From: Acidimicrobiia bacterium
Lineage (GTDB): Bacteria > Actinomycetota > Acidimicrobiia > Spongiisociales > ZC4RG35
DNA: 62,358 nt
Direction: 5' to 3'
NCBI GenBank assembly: GCA_050329955.1
Contig: JBHJOH010000050.1
Span: 1-62,358, forward strand
The notes under the pieces are model-generated. The model made no database searches and was not told the DNA's origin. It saw nothing but the letters and a program-made list of their open reading frames with translations. The position numbers were made by a program, and so were the translations under genes. This document shows, in pieces, positions 3,623-45,953 of this stretch; position 1 is the stretch's first letter; each line of letters opens with the position of its first letter.

Positions 3623-3683
3623 GGAGGCTAGCCCGATCCTGGCCTGGGTATCCGGGGCTTCCGGCTTCTGGCTTCTAGCCTCC
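3623..3683. repeat. Hairpin GGAGGCTAG/CTAGCCTCC enclosing the heptamer tandem GGCTTCC-GGCTTCT-GGCTTCT
   Basis: Read directly. GGCTTCT is the reverse complement of the AGAAGCC words at 30788-30835 and 27979-27985. Confidence 0.6.
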
Positions 3684-4440: not shown

Positions 4441-4640
4441 CCTGGCGGCTCGCTGTATCCGCTCGCCCCAGCGAGCGCCAGCGAGCGGATACGTGAGAGC
4501 CCCCGAGCGGCGCCTGTACGCGTCCGTTTGGATCCGAGCTTCAGGACGCACGAAGTTACGTGGGGCGTCGAAGACCCCAACCCGCGTACCGGTGGCCTGT
4601 ACAGGGAGCGAGCCCCCAGGCGAGCGAATACGTGGAGGCC
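4441..4640. repeat. Composite palindromic intergenic element (family B: GTATYCGCTCGCC / GGCGAGCGAATAC arms)
   Basis: 12-bp perfect hairpin GTATCCGCTCGC...GCGAGCGGATAC (4455-4492). Tandem CCAGCGAGCG x2. Distal inverted copy GGCGAGCGAATAC at 4619-4631. 30 of 32 nt match a copy at 38975-39005 on the opposite strand. Confidence 0.7.
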
Positions 4641-4748
4641 CCCGAACAGCGGTCCCGTCGACGCTGTCGACTAGCGGTAGGTGACAGGGCCGTTAACCTG
4701 CGATGGTCATCAGGAGGCATCCCCGCCGGGTCATCCCAGGCATTCATC

Positions 4749-6201: not shown

Positions 6202-6234
6202 CCTTGTCGGCCTGTTGACCTGTTGACCTGTCGG
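6202..6234. repeat. Tandem octamer array CCTTGTCGG-CCTGTTGA-CCTGTTGA-CCTGTCGG upstream of the tad locus
   Basis: Read directly. Contains two TTGAC (-35-like) hexamers. A reverse-complement copy lies at 10561-10576. Confidence 0.6.
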
Positions 6235-6275
6235 CCCCCTGTTTTCTGTCTCAGCGGTGGTGTACGTTTGTCGAC

Positions 6276-6815
6276 GTGACTCTTCATTCAGTGTTGGCGG
6301 TTCGGTGCGACACCGATCTGCTGTTGCATCACCTGGCCGGTATCGGATTGGCTGCCTCGCGCGGTACTGCGTTGCTGGTCGACCTCGACCCGGCCTCCCC
6401 CTCCTACCCGGGGCGGCTGACGGTGGCCGACCTGGTGCGCGACGGCCTGCGGAAGGCGGACCTGGCCCCTTCGAAGAAGGGCGTGGCGGTGTTGGGCAAC
6501 GGGGGTGCCGACATCGAGCGGGCGGTCGAGTTGGTCGATGCTCTCGCCGAGGGCTGGCCGGCGGTGGCGGTGCGGGCAGGATCCGATCCTCTTCCCTATC
6601 CGGTGGTGCCCGTGGTCCCGGCCTTTCCCGCCGCCTGGGGGATTGAGGCCGAAGGTGCTGTCCGCCAGCCGGTGATGAGGGCGGGCATCGAGGGCGGTCT
6701 GGTGCTGCCGGTGCTGCGACGTGGCCAGGTGCAGTCGATGCTGGCCGGGAGGGTTCGGCCGGCCTGGCGGTGGGTGAGGGCGTGGTCGCAGGTTTGGGAA
6801 CGACCATGGGGTTGA
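6276..6815 (+). CDS. Short TadZ/CpaE-like (helicase/secretion-neighbourhood) protein lacking a recognisable Walker A
   Basis: Sits immediately upstream of, and overlapping, tadA, as in actinobacterial tad loci. Weak ParA/MinD-like pattern (LLVDLDP...VAVLGNGG) with no KGGxGK loop. GTG start. Confidence 0.5.
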   Translation: MTLHSVLAVRCDTDLLLHHLAGIGLAASRGTALLVDLDPASPSYPGRLTVADLVRDGLRKADLAPSKKGVAVLGNGGADIERAVELVDALAEGWPAVAVRAGSDPLPYPVVPVVPAFPAAWGIEAEGAVRQPVMRAGIEGGLVLPVLRRGQVQSMLAGRVRPAWRWVRAWSQVWERPWG

Positions 6816-10690: not shown

Positions 10691-11698
10691 TCAGAGATCG
10701 CCGGCGGCTGAGCCGCAGATGGTCTCGGTGATCAGCTTGGTCACCACGTAGGGGTCCATGTTGGCGTTGGGACGCCGGTCCTCGAGGTAGCCCTTGCCTT
10801 CCTTGGCGCACTGCCACGGGATGCGCACCGAGGCGCCGCGGTCGGACACTCCGTAGGAGTAGTGGGTCCAGGGGGCGGTCTCGTGCAGACCGGTCAGGCG
10901 GTGCTCGATCTCTGCTCCGTAGTTGGCGACGTGCAGGTCGTGGCGCTTCCCGAGTGCTTCGGCGGCGGCGATGATCGGGTCATAGCTCTCGCGCATGGCC
11001 TTGGTCGAGAAGTTGGTGTGCGCACCGGCGCCGTTCCAGTCACCCTTGACCGGCTTCGGATCGAGGTGGGCGGAGATCCCATGGTCCTCAGCCAGGCGGT
11101 AGAGCAGGTAACGGGCCAGCCAGATCTCGTCGGAGGCCTCGATTGGGCTTGCCGGGCCGATCTGGAACTCCCACTGACCGATCATGACCTCGGCGTTGGT
11201 TCCCGAGATGGTGAGACCGGCGTCGAGACAGGCGGTGGTGTGGGCCTCGACGACCTCACGACCGAAGATCTCGTCGAATCCGACGCCGCAGTAGTAGCCG
11301 CCCTGCGGGGCCGGGTACCCGCCCATGGGGAAGCCGTATGGCCGGCCTTCTTTGAAGAAGGTGTACTCCTGCTCGATACCGAACCAGGGCTCCTGATCGG
11401 CATACTTTTCGGCGACGCCCACCAGGGCTGCACGGGTGTTGGACGGGTGTGGCTCCATGTCAACGGTCAGAACGTCGCACAGGACGAGGACGTCATCCTT
11501 GCCGCGGATCGGATCGGGGACGATCCGGACCGGGTTGAGCACGCAGTCGGACTGGTTGCCGGGGGCCTGGTTGGTGGAGGAACCGTCGAAGCCCCAGATG
11601 GGTGCTTCGGTGCCGTCGGCGACGACCTTGGTCTTCGTGCGCAGGCGGTTGGTGGGCTCGGATCCGTCGATCCAGATGTATTCGGCTCTATACGGCAC
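10691..11698 (-). CDS. glnII: Glutamine synthetase type II
   Basis: VPYRAEYIWIDG N-terminus and about 335 aa are typical of GSII. GTG start at 11698 preceded by AGAGAGGGAG. The ORF track start at 11764 is probably too far upstream. Confidence 0.85.
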   Translation of the reverse strand: MPYRAEYIWIDGSEPTNRLRTKTKVVADGTEAPIWGFDGSSTNQAPGNQSDCVLNPVRIVPDPIRGKDDVLVLCDVLTVDMEPHPSNTRAALVGVAEKYADQEPWFGIEQEYTFFKEGRPYGFPMGGYPAPQGGYYCGVGFDEIFGREVVEAHTTACLDAGLTISGTNAEVMIGQWEFQIGPASPIEASDEIWLARYLLYRLAEDHGISAHLDPKPVKGDWNGAGAHTNFSTKAMRESYDPIIAAAEALGKRHDLHVANYGAEIEHRLTGLHETAPWTHYSYGVSDRGASVRIPWQCAKEGKGYLEDRRPNANMDPYVVTKLITETICGSAAGDL

Positions 11699-27951: not shown

Positions 27952-27985
27952 CCAGCTTCCAGCTGCCAGCTTCCAGCCAGAAGCC
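27952..27985. repeat. Heptamer word array CCAGCTT-CCAGCTG-CCAGCTT-CCAGCCAGAAGCC directly after the methyltransferase stop
   Basis: Read directly. Shares words with 44788-44803, 44949-44975 and 30788-30835. Confidence 0.6.
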
Positions 27986-30707: not shown

Positions 30708-30816
30708 CGGCTGCTGGCAGGGAACGTCCGACGTCCGACGCAACACGCAGGAACAAGCGTTCTGGCCAGCAGCCAGCAGCCAGGAGCCAGAAGCCAGAAG
30801 CTAGGGGCTAGGAGCT
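30708..30816. repeat. Family-A structured intergenic repeat (core GACGTCCGACGCAACACGCA at 30730-30749) with heptamer-word arms
   Basis: GGCTGCTGGCAGGGAACGT ... AGCGTTCTGGCCAGCAGCC form a stem around the core. Followed by GCCAGCA/GCCAGAA word arrays. Confidence 0.7.
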
Positions 30817-32367
30817 CTAGGAGCCAGAAGCCAGCCCCGCTCTGTTGAGAAAGGCGGCCATCTGGCCGCGGGTGACCGTGTCGTCGGGGCAGAACCGGTC
30901 GGGTGCGCATCCCAGGGTGATGCCGGTGGCGGCGAGCCATTCGATGTCGGTTTCGAACACCGAGGTGTTGTCGTCGCCGAAGGTGATGGCGGCGCCCGCT
31001 GGGATGCTTCCTTCCATCGCCCGTCGGAGGAAGGCGGCCATCTGGCCGCGGGTGACGGTGTCGTCGGGGCAGAAGCGGTTTGGTGCGCAGCCGAGGGTGA
31101 TGCCGGTGGCGGCGAGCCATTCGATGTCGGTTTCAAACACCGAGGTGTTGTCGTCGCCAAAGGTGATGGCGGCGCCCGGCTGGATGCGCCCTTCGAGGGC
31201 TCGCCGCAGGAAGGCGGCCATCTGGCCGCGGGTGACGGTCTCGTCCGGGCAGAACCGGGTGTTGAACGGCGGGTTGCAGCCGAGCGTGATCCCAGCGGCG
31301 GCGATTGCCTCGATGTCGGCCTCGAACGGTGACCCATCGTCGTCGGCGAACGTACCCTCGGTGGCTCCCGCCTCCCAGGCGCCCGCCATCGTCACCGTGT
31401 AGTCGTGCGAGGTGGGAGAACCGTCGATGTCGACGCCCGTCACCTCGATCTCGAAGGTCAGGTCGCGTCCTTCTTCGAGCCAGTCGTCGAATCTGGGGTC
31501 GGTCACATCCCAGGACACGGTGGGCAGGAAGCCGTAGTTGGTGGCGTCGTTGTACTGGCTGATCTGAACGCGGCTGCCCTCGAAGCTCATCGAGACGTCC
31601 GCCCCGGTCAGGTCGGCCTCGAGGAACCGGCTGTGCGACAGCGACCAGCGGGTGGTCGAGAGCTCGATGGGGAAGAACCCGGCCGTGGGCCAGGCGATGT
31701 GCTCGGGAGCGCCGACGTGGCCGTCGTCGGGGTAGCCGCCGGTGACCCACATGGCGTAGGACCGTCCGGTGACACCGAACCCGAACGGCCTGGGTGCCGG
31801 CGACAGGATCCACCGTCGGTGACCGACGGCGGTGTTGCCACTGCCCGGGTCGTCCATGAAGCCCTTGGACGCTTCGATCAGGAAGTCCGTCTGGCCGGGT
31901 GGGAACAGGTACAGGTTGGAGTTGGCGGCTCCGTCGTAGCCGCTCTGAGTCCAGCAGTCCCACGAGGATGGCGGTTGATGGGAGAGCGCTCCGTTGGCGT
32001 CCATGATGAGGGCGGCGGCCTGGGCGTCGGCGTCGAGGCCGCTGTCGCGGGTGACGGGGGCGAGGTCGGCCAGCGCCCGGTAGAAGTTCACGGCCGCCAG
32101 CAGATCGTCGCGCACCGAGGCGGGAACCGATCCCGGGTCGCATCCGGCCACCGAACCGGTCCAGGGGGAGGATGGGAAGGTGAGCGAGTCGATCAGGGGG
32201 ACGTAGTCCTGGTCGTAGGCGGCTCGGACCGAGGCGCGGTCGTAGGAGTCGATCGACGAATCGGTCAGGGTTACGGCCGACCAGGGGGCCGGGTCCGGCG
32301 ACGGGGTCGGCTCGGGAGCTGCTGCCGCCGGTGCCGCCATCAGCATCGCCAGGGCGGCGGCGACCAC
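30817..32367 (-). CDS. Secreted CAP/SCP-domain protein with three C-terminal SLH-like cell-wall-binding repeats
   Basis: Signal peptide AALAMLMAAPAAAA, CAP-like LLAAVNFYRALADLAPV...ALSHQP, and 3 x 60-aa repeats F(A/G)DD..S.FE.DIE..AA.GIT.GC....FCPD.TVTRGQMAAFLRRA. Confidence 0.7.
   Translation of the reverse strand: MVAAALAMLMAAPAAAAPEPTPSPDPAPWSAVTLTDSSIDSYDRASVRAAYDQDYVPLIDSLTFPSSPWTGSVAGCDPGSVPASVRDDLLAAVNFYRALADLAPVTRDSGLDADAQAAALIMDANGALSHQPPSSWDCWTQSGYDGAANSNLYLFPPGQTDFLIEASKGFMDDPGSGNTAVGHRRWILSPAPRPFGFGVTGRSYAMWVTGGYPDDGHVGAPEHIAWPTAGFFPIELSTTRWSLSHSRFLEADLTGADVSMSFEGSRVQISQYNDATNYGFLPTVSWDVTDPRFDDWLEEGRDLTFEIEVTGVDIDGSPTSHDYTVTMAGAWEAGATEGTFADDDGSPFEADIEAIAAAGITLGCNPPFNTRFCPDETVTRGQMAAFLRRALEGRIQPGAAITFGDDNTSVFETDIEWLAATGITLGCAPNRFCPDDTVTRGQMAAFLRRAMEGSIPAGAAITFGDDNTSVFETDIEWLAATGITLGCAPDRFCPDDTVTRGQMAAFLNRAGLASGS
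30851..31390. repeat. Three tandem 180-bp coding repeats (SLH-like modules); the first two are nearly identical at DNA level
   Basis: Anchor AAGGCGGCCATCTGGCCGCGGGTGAC recurs at 30851, 31031 and 31211. Confidence 0.85.
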
Positions 32368-34517: not shown

Positions 34518-34814
34518 CGAGAGCTGCCAGCGACAGCGCCGTGAAAAGCCTTGTCCCCCTCGAGCTTGCGAGAGGGGGAAGGGGCCCCCGTGAGGAACGA
34601 GCGGGGTAGGGGGGGCCTCTCCCTCGCGAGCATGATCACGCGTTCCGGACGCGTGCGAGTTCATCTCGCGGGCTCTCAACCCCCCTACCCCGCTCCTCCG
34701 TCGCGGGGGCCCCTTCCCCCACTGCGTGGGGGACAATGCTATTCCCTGATGCGCGATCCCAGTGCGCAGAACGTGAAGCTCGACTGCGTGTTGCGTGTTA
34801 CGTCGGACGTCATC
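34518..34814. repeat. Convergent-gene spacer holding a ~147-nt nested palindrome (34574-34720) and a reverse-orientation family-A core (34785-34811)
   Basis: Perfect sub-arms 34574-34589/34705-34720 (16 bp) and 34599-34613/34681-34695 (15 bp). Inner hairpin CACGCGT-TCCGG-ACGCGTG (34637-34655). Core TGCGTGTTGCGTGTTACGTCGGACGTC ends 3 nt before the GGDEF/EAL stop codon. Confidence 0.7.
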
Positions 34815-37297: not shown

Positions 37298-38863
37298 TCA
37301 GCTCCAGCCGGCGACCGACCAGGTGCCTCCGCTCCAGGTGCCTCCGCTCCAGGTGCCTCCGCTCCAGGTGCCTCCGGACCAGGTGCCTCCGGACCAGGTG
37401 CCTCCGCTCCAGGTGCCTCCGGACCAGGTGCCTCCGGACACGTCGACCTCGCCGGTCAGGGGCTCGCCATCGCGGTACACGTGGTACGACCCACGGGACG
37501 CCTCGATCGATCCCGACCCGTCGGAACGATCCCAGTCCTGGGTGGCGGCTCGAGGGCGGGCCGCCACCGCCCGGTGCAGGTCGAGCGCCCCGGCGTCGGC
37601 GCAGTGGCCTGGTGCCGATCGGACATCACCGGCGGTGCGCAGCAAGGCGGCCTTCACCTGGTCGGGGGTCATGTCGGGGCGGTTGTCCAGCATGAGAGCC
37701 ACCGCTCCCGCCGCCACCGCAGCCGCCTGTGAGGTACCGGTCCCGCGGAAGAAGCGATCACCGTCGGCTGCGTCGGGGAACTGGTCGTCGATGAACGAGC
37801 CCGCCACCCGCAGGCTCGACACCGACCGACCCGGTGCGAGGATGTCGACCGGCCGCTGGCTGGTCCCGCAGTTCGAAAAGTCCATCACCCGGTCGTCGGA
37901 GAGGCGTGCGGTACCCCTCGGATCGGTGGCGCCCACCGCGATCACGAACGGGTCGTTGGCCGGGTCACGTAGCGGTGAGCGTCGACCATCGTTGCCGGCC
38001 GCCACCACCACCACGATCCCGGCGTGCCAAGCCGACTCGGCGGCATGGGCCAGAGGATCGATCCGGTAGTCCTGGGTGCTGTCGGTCCCGAACGCCAGCG
38101 TCAGCACCCGGATGTCGGCAGGACCATCGTCCTTGTGCTCGATAACCCACTGGATCCCGGCGATCACCTGGGAGACGTCGGCGGTACCGGTGGCATCGGC
38201 AACCTTCACGTTCACGATGTGGGCACCGGGGGCGATCCCGGCGAAATTGGACCGCAGCCAACGGTCGGTGGGACGGGCGGGCATAGCCGGATCGGAGCCG
38301 GCGATGATCCCCGCCAGATGGGTTCCATGGCCGTACATGTCCAGATGGCGCAGGTTGTCGAATTCTCCGTCGAACGACAGGTCAGGCCCGTTCAGGATCT
38401 TGCCGTCGGCATCGAGACCGCCGACCGGAGTCACCCCCGAGTCGATCAGGGCAACGCCCACACCCTCGCCGGTGATGCCACGGCGCCACACCGCATCCAC
38501 ATCCAGCACGCGACCCGTGAGCACCGACATCGGCACCCCCGACGCCGACCCGGCAGCGCTCGCCAGCTCGATCCGGGTATCCGGCGTGATGTGGCGAACC
38601 CCATCGGCCGCTTCCAGCAACTCCACCACATCGGAGCCGATCGTCGCCGAGAAACCGTCGATGATGGGAAGCTCGGTGATGACGCTCCCACCGAGAGCCT
38701 CCACCCGTTGCCGCACCTCGGCCACCCGGTCCGCCTCCGCCTGCACGATGACCTGCACATCGGTCTTCGTCGGTGTCGCACCAACCGGAACCGCAGACAT
38801 CATCAATCCGACGGCGACCCACGCACCCAACACACGCGATCTCGACCTCGTCGCCAGGGACAT
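37298..38863 (-). CDS. Secreted S8 (subtilisin-like) serine peptidase with a C-terminal (GGTWS)8 tail
   Basis: Catalytic triad contexts ALIDSGV, GHGTHLAGII, GTSQAAAVAAG. Signal peptide from MSLATRSRSRVLGAWVAVGLMMSAVPVGA (ATG 38863). The upstream part of ORF 37298..39205 overlaps topA and is rejected. Confidence 0.85.
   Translation of the reverse strand: MSLATRSRSRVLGAWVAVGLMMSAVPVGATPTKTDVQVIVQAEADRVAEVRQRVEALGGSVITELPIIDGFSATIGSDVVELLEAADGVRHITPDTRIELASAAGSASGVPMSVLTGRVLDVDAVWRRGITGEGVGVALIDSGVTPVGGLDADGKILNGPDLSFDGEFDNLRHLDMYGHGTHLAGIIAGSDPAMPARPTDRWLRSNFAGIAPGAHIVNVKVADATGTADVSQVIAGIQWVIEHKDDGPADIRVLTLAFGTDSTQDYRIDPLAHAAESAWHAGIVVVVAAGNDGRRSPLRDPANDPFVIAVGATDPRGTARLSDDRVMDFSNCGTSQRPVDILAPGRSVSSLRVAGSFIDDQFPDAADGDRFFRGTGTSQAAAVAAGAVALMLDNRPDMTPDQVKAALLRTAGDVRSAPGHCADAGALDLHRAVAARPRAATQDWDRSDGSGSIEASRGSYHVYRDGEPLTGEVDVSGGTWSGGTWSGGTWSGGTWSGGTWSGGTWSGGTWSGGTWSVAGWS
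37319..37438. repeat. Eight tandem copies of a 15-bp unit (CCAGGTGCCTCCGCT / ...GGA) encoding GGTWS x8
   Basis: Counted directly. In-frame, since 15 bp equals 5 codons. Confidence 0.95.
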
Positions 38864-43752: not shown

Positions 43753-44786
<1,034 letters not shown>

Positions 44787-44975
44787 AGCTGCCAGCTGCC
44801 AGCTTCAGGACGTCCGACGCAACACGCAACAGAGCACGCGTTCTGGCTGGTAGCGGGAGCGAGTTACGAGTTACGAGCTACGAGCTACGAGCTACGAGCT
44901 TCAGGACGTCCGACGCAACACGCAACACGGAGGAGAGAGAGCGTTCTAGCTGGCAGCTGGCAGCTGGCAGCTTCC
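44787..44975. repeat. Composite family-A structured repeat: duplicated 31-nt core plus complementary heptamer microsatellites
   Basis: AGCTTCAGGACGTCCGACGCAACACGCAACA occurs at 44801-44831 and again at 44897-44927. (GCTGCCA)2 at 44788-44803 is complementary to (GCTGGCA)3 at 44949-44971. (GYTACGA)5 at ~44865-44900. Confidence 0.8.
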
Positions 44976-44985
44976 AGCTGTCTCG

Positions 44986-45057
44986 AGCCGAGGGGGGGAT
45001 TTGAACCCCCGACCTACGCATTACGAGTGCGTTGCTCTACCCCTGAGCTACCCCGGC
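44986..45057 (-). tRNA. tRNA-Thr (anticodon CGU)
   Basis: Folded by hand: GCCGGGG-TA-GCTC-AGGGGTA-GAGC-A-ACGCA-CTCGTAA-TGCGT-AGGTC-GGGGG-TTCAAAT-CCCCC-CCTCGGC plus discriminator. All four stems pair, with one G-U. CCA is not encoded. Confidence 0.9.
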
Positions 45058-45139
45058 GACGGTGGCGACAGGGTAGCGGCTCCAGCCCAGGGGTGAACCG
45101 GGATACGTTCTCGGCGGCGGGCTTGCTACCGTCCCATCG

Positions 45140-45718
45140 GTGGCAGATCAGGCGACTTTCGAACGGGACGCGATGGAGTACGCGCCGCAGTTGTTCACTG
45201 CGGCCATGCGTATGACCCGCAATGCCGCCGATGCCGAGGATCTCGTCCAGGAGACGTTTCTGAAGGCGTACCGGGCGTACGGCACCTTCGAGCAGGGCAC
45301 CAATCTCAAGGCGTGGCTGTACCGGATCCTGACCAACACCTTCATCAACAAGTACCGCCGGGATGCCCGTCGCCCACACGAGACCGATCTCGGTGAGGTC
45401 GAGGACCTGTACCTGTACCGACGCATCGGCTCGGAGCATTCGGCGGGTGCGGCTCGCAGCGTCGAGGATCTGGTGCTCGAGGGACTGGTCGAGGCCGACA
45501 TCAAGCGGGCGGTGGAGGATCTTCCAGAAACCTTCCGGATCCCGGTGCTGCTGGCCGATCTCGAGGGTTTCTCGTACAAGGAGATCGCCGACATCCTGGA
45601 CATCCCGATCGGGACGGTGATGTCACGGCTGCATCGGGGAAGAAAGGCGCTCCAGAAGGCGTTGTGGGAATTCGCACGGAGCAGAGGATTGCTCCCCGAC
45701 GAGGTCACCGATGTCTGA
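45140..45718 (+). CDS. sigH: ECF sigma factor, SigH/SigR-like
   Basis: Region 2 [42 protein letters not shown] and region 4 [25 protein letters not shown]. Followed by a ZAS anti-sigma gene. Confidence 0.8.
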
Positions 45719-45953
45719 TCACTGCGACGAAGCGCTCGCCCATCTCTACACCTACCTCGATGGCGAACTCGACGACGATCTGATCGCCGAGCGGATTCGT
45801 GTCCACCTGGTCCAGTGTCCACCCTGCGATGATGTCTTCACGTTCGAGGAGCGCCTCAAGATCGCGGTCCGGACGAGGCTCCGTGAGGATGTCCCGGTCG
45901 AGGTGATCCAGCGGATCCAACTCGTGATCCGTTCCCAGTCGATCGAGGGGTGA
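45711..45953 (+). CDS. rshA: Zinc-binding anti-sigma factor (ZAS; RsrA/RshA-like)
   Basis: 80 aa. Contains C-x25-HLVQCPPC, i.e. the HxxxCxxC ZAS motif. 8-nt overlap with the sigma gene. Confidence 0.8.

Follow-up and report, generated by a model that had tools for sequence, protein, structure and literature searches.

A locally duplicated mosaic of heptamer repeats fills the spacer between holB and tRNA-Thr in an Acidimicrobiia bacterium

The DNA studied here, referred to below as the window, is a stretch of 62,358 nucleotides (nt) from an Acidimicrobiia bacterium (contig JBHJOH010000050.1), and our subject is the composite repeat at 44787–44980, between holB and the gene for tRNA-Thr. The two genes are convergent, and the repeat occupies the whole spacer, forming the 3′ trailer of both transcription units. 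The features of the locus, with heptamer arrays as reported by Tandem Repeats Finder (TRF), are as follows.

43755–44786, plus strand: holB, DNA polymerase III delta′ (homologues named DNA polymerase III subunit delta′; PF13177)
44787–44804, plus strand: left arm, heptamer array (AGCTGCC)x2.6 (TRF), its first base directly after the holB stop codon TAG at 44784–44786
44801–44831, plus strand: first core copy, the 31-mer AGCTTCAGGACGTCCGACGCAACACGCAACA, composed of GACGTCC, GACGCAA and CACGCAA units, with the locus-specific left junction AGCTTCAG
44838–44859, plus strand: right inner module of the first unit, GCGTTCT (44838–44844) followed by the degenerate GGCTGGTAGCGGGAG
44860–44900, plus strand: central array (CGAGYTA)x5.9, which is the left arm of the second unit (reported by TRF as (CGAGCTA)x5.9)
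44897–44927, plus strand: second core copy, the identical 31-mer AGCTTCAGGACGTCCGACGCAACACGCAACA, sharing the left junction AGCTTCAG with the first
44941–44947, plus strand: GCGTTCT of the second unit, read directly from the sequence
44948–44980, plus strand: right arm, heptamer array (AGCTGGC)x4.7 (TRF), ending 4 nt short of the tRNA-Thr 3′ end
44985–45057, minus strand: tRNA-Thr(CGU) (ARAGORN; Rfam RF00005, 71.8 bits)

Much of this layout had been read correctly in a first-pass annotation: a spacer consisting almost entirely of repeat, a 31-mer present twice in direct orientation (the copies lie 96 nt apart), a GCGTTCT after each core, flanks of tandem heptamers, and outermost arrays that are reverse complements of each other. 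The spacings between core and GCGTTCT measure 6 nt in the first unit and 13 nt in the second. The repeat search recovered the outer arms, 44787–44804 and 44948–44965, as an 18-nt inverted repeat with 100% complementarity, and the GCGTTCT of the first unit pairs with AGGACGT when G-U pairs are included. TRF placed five period-7 arrays inside 44787–44980, while a direct repeat of 46 nt with 91% identity and a spacing of 96 nt defines a unit of about 96 nt that is present twice. The core is C/A-rich and G-poor on one strand, the holB-sense strand at this locus, and is itself 7-nt periodic, (GACGTCC)n(GACGCAA)(CACGCAA)n, and so of the same sequence type as its flanks. The left junction AGCTTCAG followed by a single GACGTCC unit occurs in both holB copies and in none of the other 25 copies of the family described below; this unique common junction and the 96-nt periodicity indicate that the two holB copies arose by local tandem duplication and not by two separate insertions.

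A search of the window for a 22-nt core with up to three mismatches returned four matches, 30730(+), 34790(-), 44809(+) and 44905(+), against 0.00 expected from 100 shuffles, and the reported recurrence of the core near 30730 and, on the reverse strand, near 34790 is thus secure. Beyond the window, we scanned one genome per species from 185,579 species for the 20-mer GACGTCCGACGYAACACGCA and obtained 21 loci, of which 20, with 23 copies, lie in one metagenome-assembled genome (MAG), MFD09779.bin.1.245; at 84–87% nucleotide identity to the window over a syntenic 8-kb stretch (L019), this MAG represents a congeneric species. The suspicion that the core marks a recurrent family is thereby confirmed, with 27 true copies in the window and the MAG together. 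The other exact matches, one species-genome locus and 2 of 241 million metagenome records, all fall within coding sequence; they (L020, L022 and L023) are chance coding matches in genomes of about 60% GC, and both metagenome records represent the same match. Viral contigs gave no core match, the plasmid and phage collections did not contain the core, and no annotated insertion sequence (IS), phage or plasmid feature matched it. What the plasmid and phage collections did hold were simple (CGAGCTA)n arrays in Streptomyces and Natrialba plasmids, a five-copy intergenic array at L028:616-655 in the Streptomyces sp. NBC_01768 plasmid NZ_CP109116.1 and another array on the Natrialba magadii plasmid NC_013923.1. 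Their presence in such distant taxa indicates that single heptamer units recur independently of the core family.

An anchored alignment of the copies gives the consensus ...GGCTGCTGGCTCGGAACGTCC GACGTCC GACGCAA CACGCAA CACGC..GGAACGCGTTCTGGCTGG..., and the conserved central module reads GGCTCGG-AACGTCC-(GACGTCC)n-GACGCAA-(CACGCAA)n...GCGTTCT. The core thus consists of two short arrays, (GACGTCC)1-3 and (CACGCAA)2-5, whose unit numbers vary between copies. It is flanked by tandem heptamers, AGCTNCC, GAGCNAC and GGCTNCT on the 5′ side and NAGCTGG and AGNAGCC on the 3′ side; the central array of the holB element belongs to the GAGCNAC class, which also stands 5′ of the core in the MAG loci L005, L009 and L013. 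The arms differ between copies in unit, length and presence, and the copy at 34792(-) and those in L001, L006, L007 and L019 have none. In 9 of 10 copies, a GGCTNCT left arm is in 7-nt phase with the core; a common 7-nt register for the entire element was considered and rejected, as it holds from the left arm through the core and fails on the right side, where the phases are scattered. Arrays of this period are confined to the spacers: in the 222 kb of readable DNA from the window and the MAG loci (about 8 kb each), 64 of 64 period-7 arrays are intergenic, the intergenic fraction being 13% of the DNA. Period 7 is alone in this, the arrays of periods 6 and 9 being all coding and those of the remaining periods few or mixed. 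Many of the arrays are unrelated to the core, among them (GTAGAAC)n paired with (GTTCTAC)n, (GCAGAAC)n and (GAGCGAC)14, and more distant relatives carry still other units, GGCCGGT and GGCCACR in L026 and ACGTATT in L027. We also considered whether the heptamers provide stop codons in all three frames; the GTAGAAC and GCCAGTA units would suit this, AGCTGCC, GGCTGCT and GAGCGAC would not, and the notion was dropped.

All 27 true cores are intergenic, and the arrays are packed against the 3′ ends of genes. The gap between array and stop codon has a median of 19 nt and is 9 nt or less in 16 of 39 cases, with several arrays overlapping the stop, in agreement with the initial observation that cores lie just past stop codons; the gap between array and start codon has an approximate median of 130 nt. 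Of the 33 convergent spacers, 11 contain an element, as do 21 of the 140 co-directional and 3 of the 31 divergent ones. REP and BIME elements are distributed in a similar manner, being intergenic and depleted from divergent spacers. The related claim that the core takes the orientation of the upstream gene did not survive: all three window core loci lie between convergent transcription units, where either orientation of the core is sense to one neighbour and hence uninformative, and in co-directional spacers, the core is sense in 5 cases and antisense in 8.

A rule of a different kind was seen in the arrays. Wherever complementary arrays share a spacer in the window and loci L001–L021, they stand in the same X..X′ order (14 of 14; AGCTNCC..GGNAGCT, GGCTNCT..AGNAGCC and GTASAAC..GTTSTAC), and among the arrays about 40 nt or less from a stop codon, 25 face one way and 2 the other, the unpaired GAGCNAC and GCAGAAC arrays doing so at 4:0 and 2:0. 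As an X..X′ inverted repeat is identical from both strands, what the rule fixes is the handedness of such a repeat, a trait of elements whose termini are defined, and array polarity is the main observation that slippage alone fails to explain. The 46 genes flanking the elements are ordinary housekeeping genes (alaS, an RNA-polymerase subunit, ispD, truA, msrA and uppP among them); no gene family is recurrent among the 46, and no transposase is found among the 25 most-represented of the 75 Pfam families that they match.

The spacers are rebuilt rapidly. Through HolB homologues, labelled Acidimicrobiia, we retrieved the holB loci of four relatives, L024, L025, L026 and L027, with HolB amino acid identities to the window of 96% (about 88–90% at the nucleotide level), 86%, 80% and 73%, respectively, and none of the four holB spacers contains the core. 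The holB–tRNA spacer of L024 is 390 nt long and holds (GGCTGCT)4(GGCTTCT)4, (GCAGAAC)n and two G-rich hairpins; that of L025 has GCCAGAG and GCCAGAA arrays and the same G-rich hairpin as L024; that of L026 is only about 40 nt, the arrays being on the far side of the tRNA; and L027 has different heptamer units again. The coding flanks and the tRNA align at 88–99% with the relatives, and spacers so remodelled amid such flanks suggest that the window composite is young and has replaced other hairpin elements. The hairpin of the relatives is a G6/C6 repeat (CCGGCGGGGGGTYSARGGGGGGTCGSCCCCC) that adjoins tRNA-Thr at L024:11230-11265 and 11385-11415 and at L025:3630-3661; the window lacks it and has the composite repeat instead. 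Turnover is also seen between the congeners, since the window spacer orthologous to that of MAG locus L019 has (GGCTTCY)3 and nothing that corresponds to the L019 core. An identical 20-mer in species that are about 16% diverged, at sites that are at least partly non-orthologous, implies either continued copying or homogenisation or selection on the sequence; independent origin of the common core string is not credible.

What these comparisons describe is a real, locally duplicated and strictly intergenic mosaic repeat that is packed at gene 3′ ends and turns over fast, and that has no family-wide RNA structure, strand bias or gene-orientation rule. We consider it probable, with a good deal of room for doubt, that 44787–44980 represents a genus-specific intergenic mosaic heptamer repeat of an Acidimicrobiia lineage, present in two tandem copies through local duplication, its arms formed by slippage, its core copied as a unit and its function, if any, limited to that of a generic two-way stem-loop. 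Under this explanation, the arrays would lengthen, shorten and mutate by replication slippage and unequal exchange; they would occupy unconstrained DNA up to the stop codons and be removed from the DNA on the promoter side. The central module and the left arm would be copied between loci as a unit, either by a trans-acting enzyme or through gene conversion among loci already bearing similar arrays, and copying of this kind would keep the core the same from species to species as its flanks are replaced. The constant X..X′ order and the 25:2 excess of one orientation near stop codons similarly point to dispersal as a unit, as known for elements with defined termini. Any effect might be that of a long, strand-symmetric stem-loop or cruciform between the convergent holB and tRNA-Thr transcripts, which could help to end or protect both of them.

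Several considerations count against this explanation. No transposase, target-site duplication or clean pair of filled and empty sites was found in the roughly 220 kb from the two genomes. The MAG copies were retrieved by exact match to the 20-mer, so their uniformity is partly built in and diverged copies would have been missed, and we have discounted that uniformity as evidence; the gene calls come from a caller based on codon log-odds (codon usage) and trained on the data, which makes the distances to start codons approximate. The fixed polarity of the arms and the one-way orientation of unpaired stop-proximal arrays could reflect a function linked to transcription. Finally, the exactness of a 20-mer at a divergence of about 16% would also be compatible with purifying selection on a binding site for a protein or RNA.

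One alternative is a mobile DNA recognised by a protein: a REP/REPIN- or MITE-like non-autonomous element, bound at its heptamer arms or its core and moved by a RAYT, an IS200-type Y1 transposase or a like enzyme encoded elsewhere. Its attraction lies in the dynamics: orthologous sites vary between congeners in presence and absence while the core stays exact, the complementary arms keep their fixed order, the elements keep strictly to intergenic DNA and are depleted from divergent spacers, which hold promoters only, and a second repeat family forms REPIN-like inverted pairs beside some of the cores. The anatomy is another matter. The conserved core is non-palindromic and has no conserved hairpin, the arms differ in length and sequence from copy to copy and are missing from some, and target-site duplications were not seen; the Pfam families most represented among the neighbours include no transposase, and the plasmid and phage collections hold nothing similar beyond the (CGAGCTA)n arrays. 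We regard this alternative as unlikely, if worth keeping in mind. A more daring version, which we put forward as a doubtful conjecture, is a non-autonomous mobile element with heptanucleotide microsatellite termini, copied by an enzyme (a transposase, a primase-polymerase or one resembling a reverse transcriptase, RT) that would recognise or copy heptamers and target gene 3′ ends across the clade; such an element would account for the X..X′ polarity, the 7-nt phase between arm and core, the exactness of the core at about 16% divergence and the placement against stop codons.

The annotation had proposed a structured cis-acting RNA, transcribed with the upstream gene and folded so that the C/A-rich core forms the loop of a hairpin, to serve as a 3′-UTR (untranslated region) stabiliser, a terminator or a Rho-loading site, with arms selected for pairing. 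The locus itself makes this idea attractive: the elements lie directly past stop codons, the stop-proximal arrays share one orientation, the sense strand of the core is rich in C and A and poor in G, and the segment folds strongly, at -95.4 kcal/mol (z -4.7) on the plus strand and -89.8 kcal/mol (z -3.6) on the minus strand. The proposal that G-U pairs favour an RNA made in the holB direction thus holds locally, where the advantage of 5.6 kcal/mol is small, and fails for the family, as the sense RNA is the more stable in just 12 of 27 copies and the mean difference is 0.17 kcal/mol. The core is not a free loop but partly paired in the predicted folds, with 5–13 of 20 nt unpaired. Selection on structure, argued from a conserved loop between non-conserved yet complementary arms, was not supported either: RNAalifold found no consensus structure in the 27 copies (-0.66 kcal/mol, 2 trivial pairs, 0 compensatory), and a copy's own flanks pair at a mean of -47.5 kcal/mol against -45.9 kcal/mol for flanks swapped between copies (permutation p=0.14). 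The complementarity of the arms is explained by the small vocabulary of quasi-palindromic heptamers that the copies share (CAGCTG and CTGGC/GCCAG cores) and not by co-evolution of arms. A terminator and promoter scan gave nothing, with 0 terminator-like sites in 44300–45400, and an intrinsic (Rho-independent) terminator was rejected, since the hairpin is present and the U-tract is absent, no T-run following it. Rfam returned the tRNA alone, both at gathering thresholds on the whole window and at permissive thresholds on 44700–45100, the best score in 44787–44980 (E=0.79) being far below threshold; the repeat therefore belongs to no described Rfam family, as anticipated, and IS, phage and plasmid features are likewise unmatched. 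As for a Rho utilisation site, the core, C/A-rich on just one strand, runs antisense to transcription in 8 of the 13 co-directional cases. With co-directional cores more often antisense than sense and with close relatives wholly lacking the core at the holB locus, a structured cis-regulatory RNA is improbable, and we rejected it as a description of the family.

Pure in-situ microsatellite growth, in which each locus would have gained its arrays and core separately through slippage, nothing being copied from one locus to another and no function being served, would suit the arrays of many unrelated heptamer units throughout the clade and the standing of heptamers as the commonest long simple-sequence repeats (SSRs) in many bacteria (PMC4692102; PMC4679880, both citing Mrazek 2007), but it is very improbable overall, being effectively refuted for the core, where about 27 loci in two species share an identical 20–46-nt non-repetitive junction sequence (GGCTCGGAACGTCCGACGTCCGACGCAACACGCA) and the 185,579 species genomes otherwise give just one chance coding match, and viable only for the arms.

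The closest known counterparts, by analogy, appear to be the STRR and SDR repeats of cyanobacteria and the heptamer repeats of Xanthomonas and Nostoc. The STRR heptanucleotide repeats of cyanobacteria and the small dispersed repeats (SDR4–6) of Nostoc were reportedly described by Elhai et al. in 2008, SDR5 reportedly being linked to heptamer repeats and hairpins. Like the repeats here, STRR and SDR are said to include tandem arrays of several related heptamers in intergenic DNA, to be confined to a single narrow lineage and to have no known enzyme, and the SDRs reportedly also have a short conserved sequence of about 20–30 nt in many dispersed copies that are present or absent at orthologous sites. 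The same features were found in our elements: at least about 2.5 head-to-tail 7-nt units, an intergenic location and variation between relatives, as in heptanucleotide repeats of the LSSR/STRR type, and a short conserved dispersed sequence that is polymorphic between orthologous sites, as in SDRs. Our elements differ from the Nostoc SDRs in coming from high-GC Acidimicrobiia and not Nostocaceae, and their sequences are unrelated, so the likeness is one of analogy and not of membership. Furthermore, unlike in STRR and SDR, the core of the holB family is made of heptamer units in 7-nt phase with the left arm, and the arrays abut stop codons; for SDR5, HIP1 is the only possible insertion site named (PMC5861425).

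Over-representation of intergenic heptamers is documented and unexplained in Xanthomonas, Nostoc, Burkholderia, some Actinobacteria and Beggiatoaceae (PMC4692102; PMC4679880). The GGGAATC and GGGGAYT heptamer SSRs of Xanthomonas and Nostoc consist of G-tract units with proposed G-quadruplexes (Rehm et al. 2015; PMC4692102). They resemble the present arrays in being over-represented in intergenic DNA, in varying in length and sequence between close species and in forming some inverted pairs capable of stem-loops or cruciforms, and they differ in that our units have no G-tracts and in that a conserved non-array core is not described there. The TAACTGA direct repeats of marine Beggiatoaceae and cyanobacteria (MacGregor 2015; PMC4679880) are likewise abundant intergenic heptamers with a consistent orientation to neighbouring genes and an unexplained mechanism; those, however, have a single unit sequence and lie mostly upstream of start codons, whereas here there are many units, at gene 3′ ends and in paired inverted arrays. 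The proteobacterial REP, BIME and REPIN elements (Bertels & Rainey 2011; PMC3116915) are, similarly to ours, lineage-specific, extragenic, mosaic, hairpin-capable and often located in convergent or co-directional spacers; REPs, however, are short imperfect palindromes with an associated RAYT gene, whereas our core is non-palindromic, the arms are microsatellites and no RAYT is among the 25 most-represented of the 75 Pfam families. We rejected REP/REPIN as a class, given that the unit is not a short imperfect palindrome and that the 27 copies fold to no common structure, and MITE, given the variable arms, which pair no better with their own than with foreign partners, and no duplication visible at the element ends; CRISPR, attC and retron were set aside for want of spacers and of integrase or RT neighbours and for the wrong unit length. 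The MIRU and TRIT-type repeats of Mycobacterium tuberculosis offer an actinobacterial parallel, as they too are intergenic and cluster at the ends of genes, and some are proposed terminators; neither is built from heptamers, MIRUs being 40–100-nt units inside operons, some of them coding, and TRIT a fixed hairpin motif.

For annotation, the elements should be treated as lineage-specific repeats and not as structured RNAs, and they are unsuitable as the seed of an Rfam-type family. Short-read assemblies of this clade have short contigs, and the elements are a probable contributor: in several relatives the contig with holB is just 2–4 kb long, and of those retrieved, the only one seen to end in the holB spacer, L025, does so within the G-rich hairpin and not in an array. 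The finding extends intergenic heptamer microsatellites to uncultured soil Acidimicrobiia from a previously known range of cyanobacteria, Xanthomonas, Burkholderia, Beggiatoaceae and a few Actinobacteria (PMC4692102; PMC4679880). Arrays that abut stop codons with fixed polarity, around a heptamer-phased core that stays identical amid remodelling, offer a system in which slippage, gene conversion and active copying can be separated, and the arrays should serve as highly variable strain markers. Were a heptamer-ended mobile element real, it would give a mechanistic handle on the dominance of heptamers among long SSRs in many bacteria.

The other copies and related arrays of the window are the following.

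30709–30834, plus strand: second family copy, with the arm GGCTGCTGGC, the core GGAACGTCC-(GACGTCC)-GACGCAA-CACGCAGG, GCGTTCT at 30757–30763 and a complementary (GCCAGNA)x9.7 array
34785–34814, minus strand: third family copy, armless, 3 nt past the stop codon of a GGDEF/EAL gene
27952–27977, plus strand: (CCAGCTK) heptamer array without a core, 3 nt past a stop codon and of the same class as the holB left arm
3656–3676, plus strand: (GGCTTCY)x3 array without a core; the orthologous MAG spacer (L019) has a core instead
4536–4548, plus strand: 13-mer GAGCTTCAGGACG, the same sequence as the left junction in the holB copies, without a core and not a true family copy

The second copy begins 1 nt past the stop codon of a PhoH/PIN gene, and the degenerate end of its (GCCAGNA) array (30802–30834) crosses the stop (30817–30819) and the last codons of a convergent minus-strand gene; the array thus supplies the C-terminal codons of that gene. 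Inside the same minus-strand gene (30820–32367) lies a 180-nt tandem repeat, 30847–31258, in 2.3 copies of 90% identity. L024 retains the armless copy of 34.8 kb at the orthologous position; the two differ by the exchange of one heptamer (GACGTCC-GACGTAA-CACGCAA against GACGTCC-GACGTCC-GACGCAA). Close to it, at 34547–34745, a second dispersed repeat with G5/C5 hairpins, TTGTCCCCCTCGAGCTTGCGAGAGGGGGAAGGGGCC...GGGGTAGGGGGG, forms an inverted pair like that of a REPIN; it matches no Rfam family, recurs in L001, L007, L008, L015, L016, L018 and L024:1270-1520, and is directly downstream of the core in several MAG loci. The degenerate core copy that had been proposed at 4538–4560 could not be upheld, as only the 13-mer left junction matches and the core is absent. 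That 13-mer lies within an insertion of about 140 nt relative to the orthologous MAG spacer of L019 (window 4523–4662), bounded by an imperfect direct duplication of about 35 nt (GCGAGCGRATACGTGRAG.CCCCCGA).

A few features elsewhere in the window were recorded in passing. At 37301–37439, a coding tandem repeat with a 15-nt unit, (CCAGGTGCCTCCGCT)x7.9, is situated close to the C-terminal end of a Peptidase_S8 homologue; its alignment to L024 and L027 at several offsets suggests a variable copy number. ARAGORN called a 'tRNA-???' with a 4-nt anticodon (catt) at 6251–6325, probably a false positive, since the Rfam tRNA model scores it below threshold; an 8-nt repeat (CCTGTTGA)x2.6 lies just upstream of the call, at 6211–6231. 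Just past tRNA-Thr, at 45140–45953, the gene for an ECF sigma factor overlaps with a small downstream gene for a zf-HC2 (HxxxCxxC) anti-sigma factor; the two form a SigR/RsrA-like redox pair whose synteny is kept in L026 and L027.

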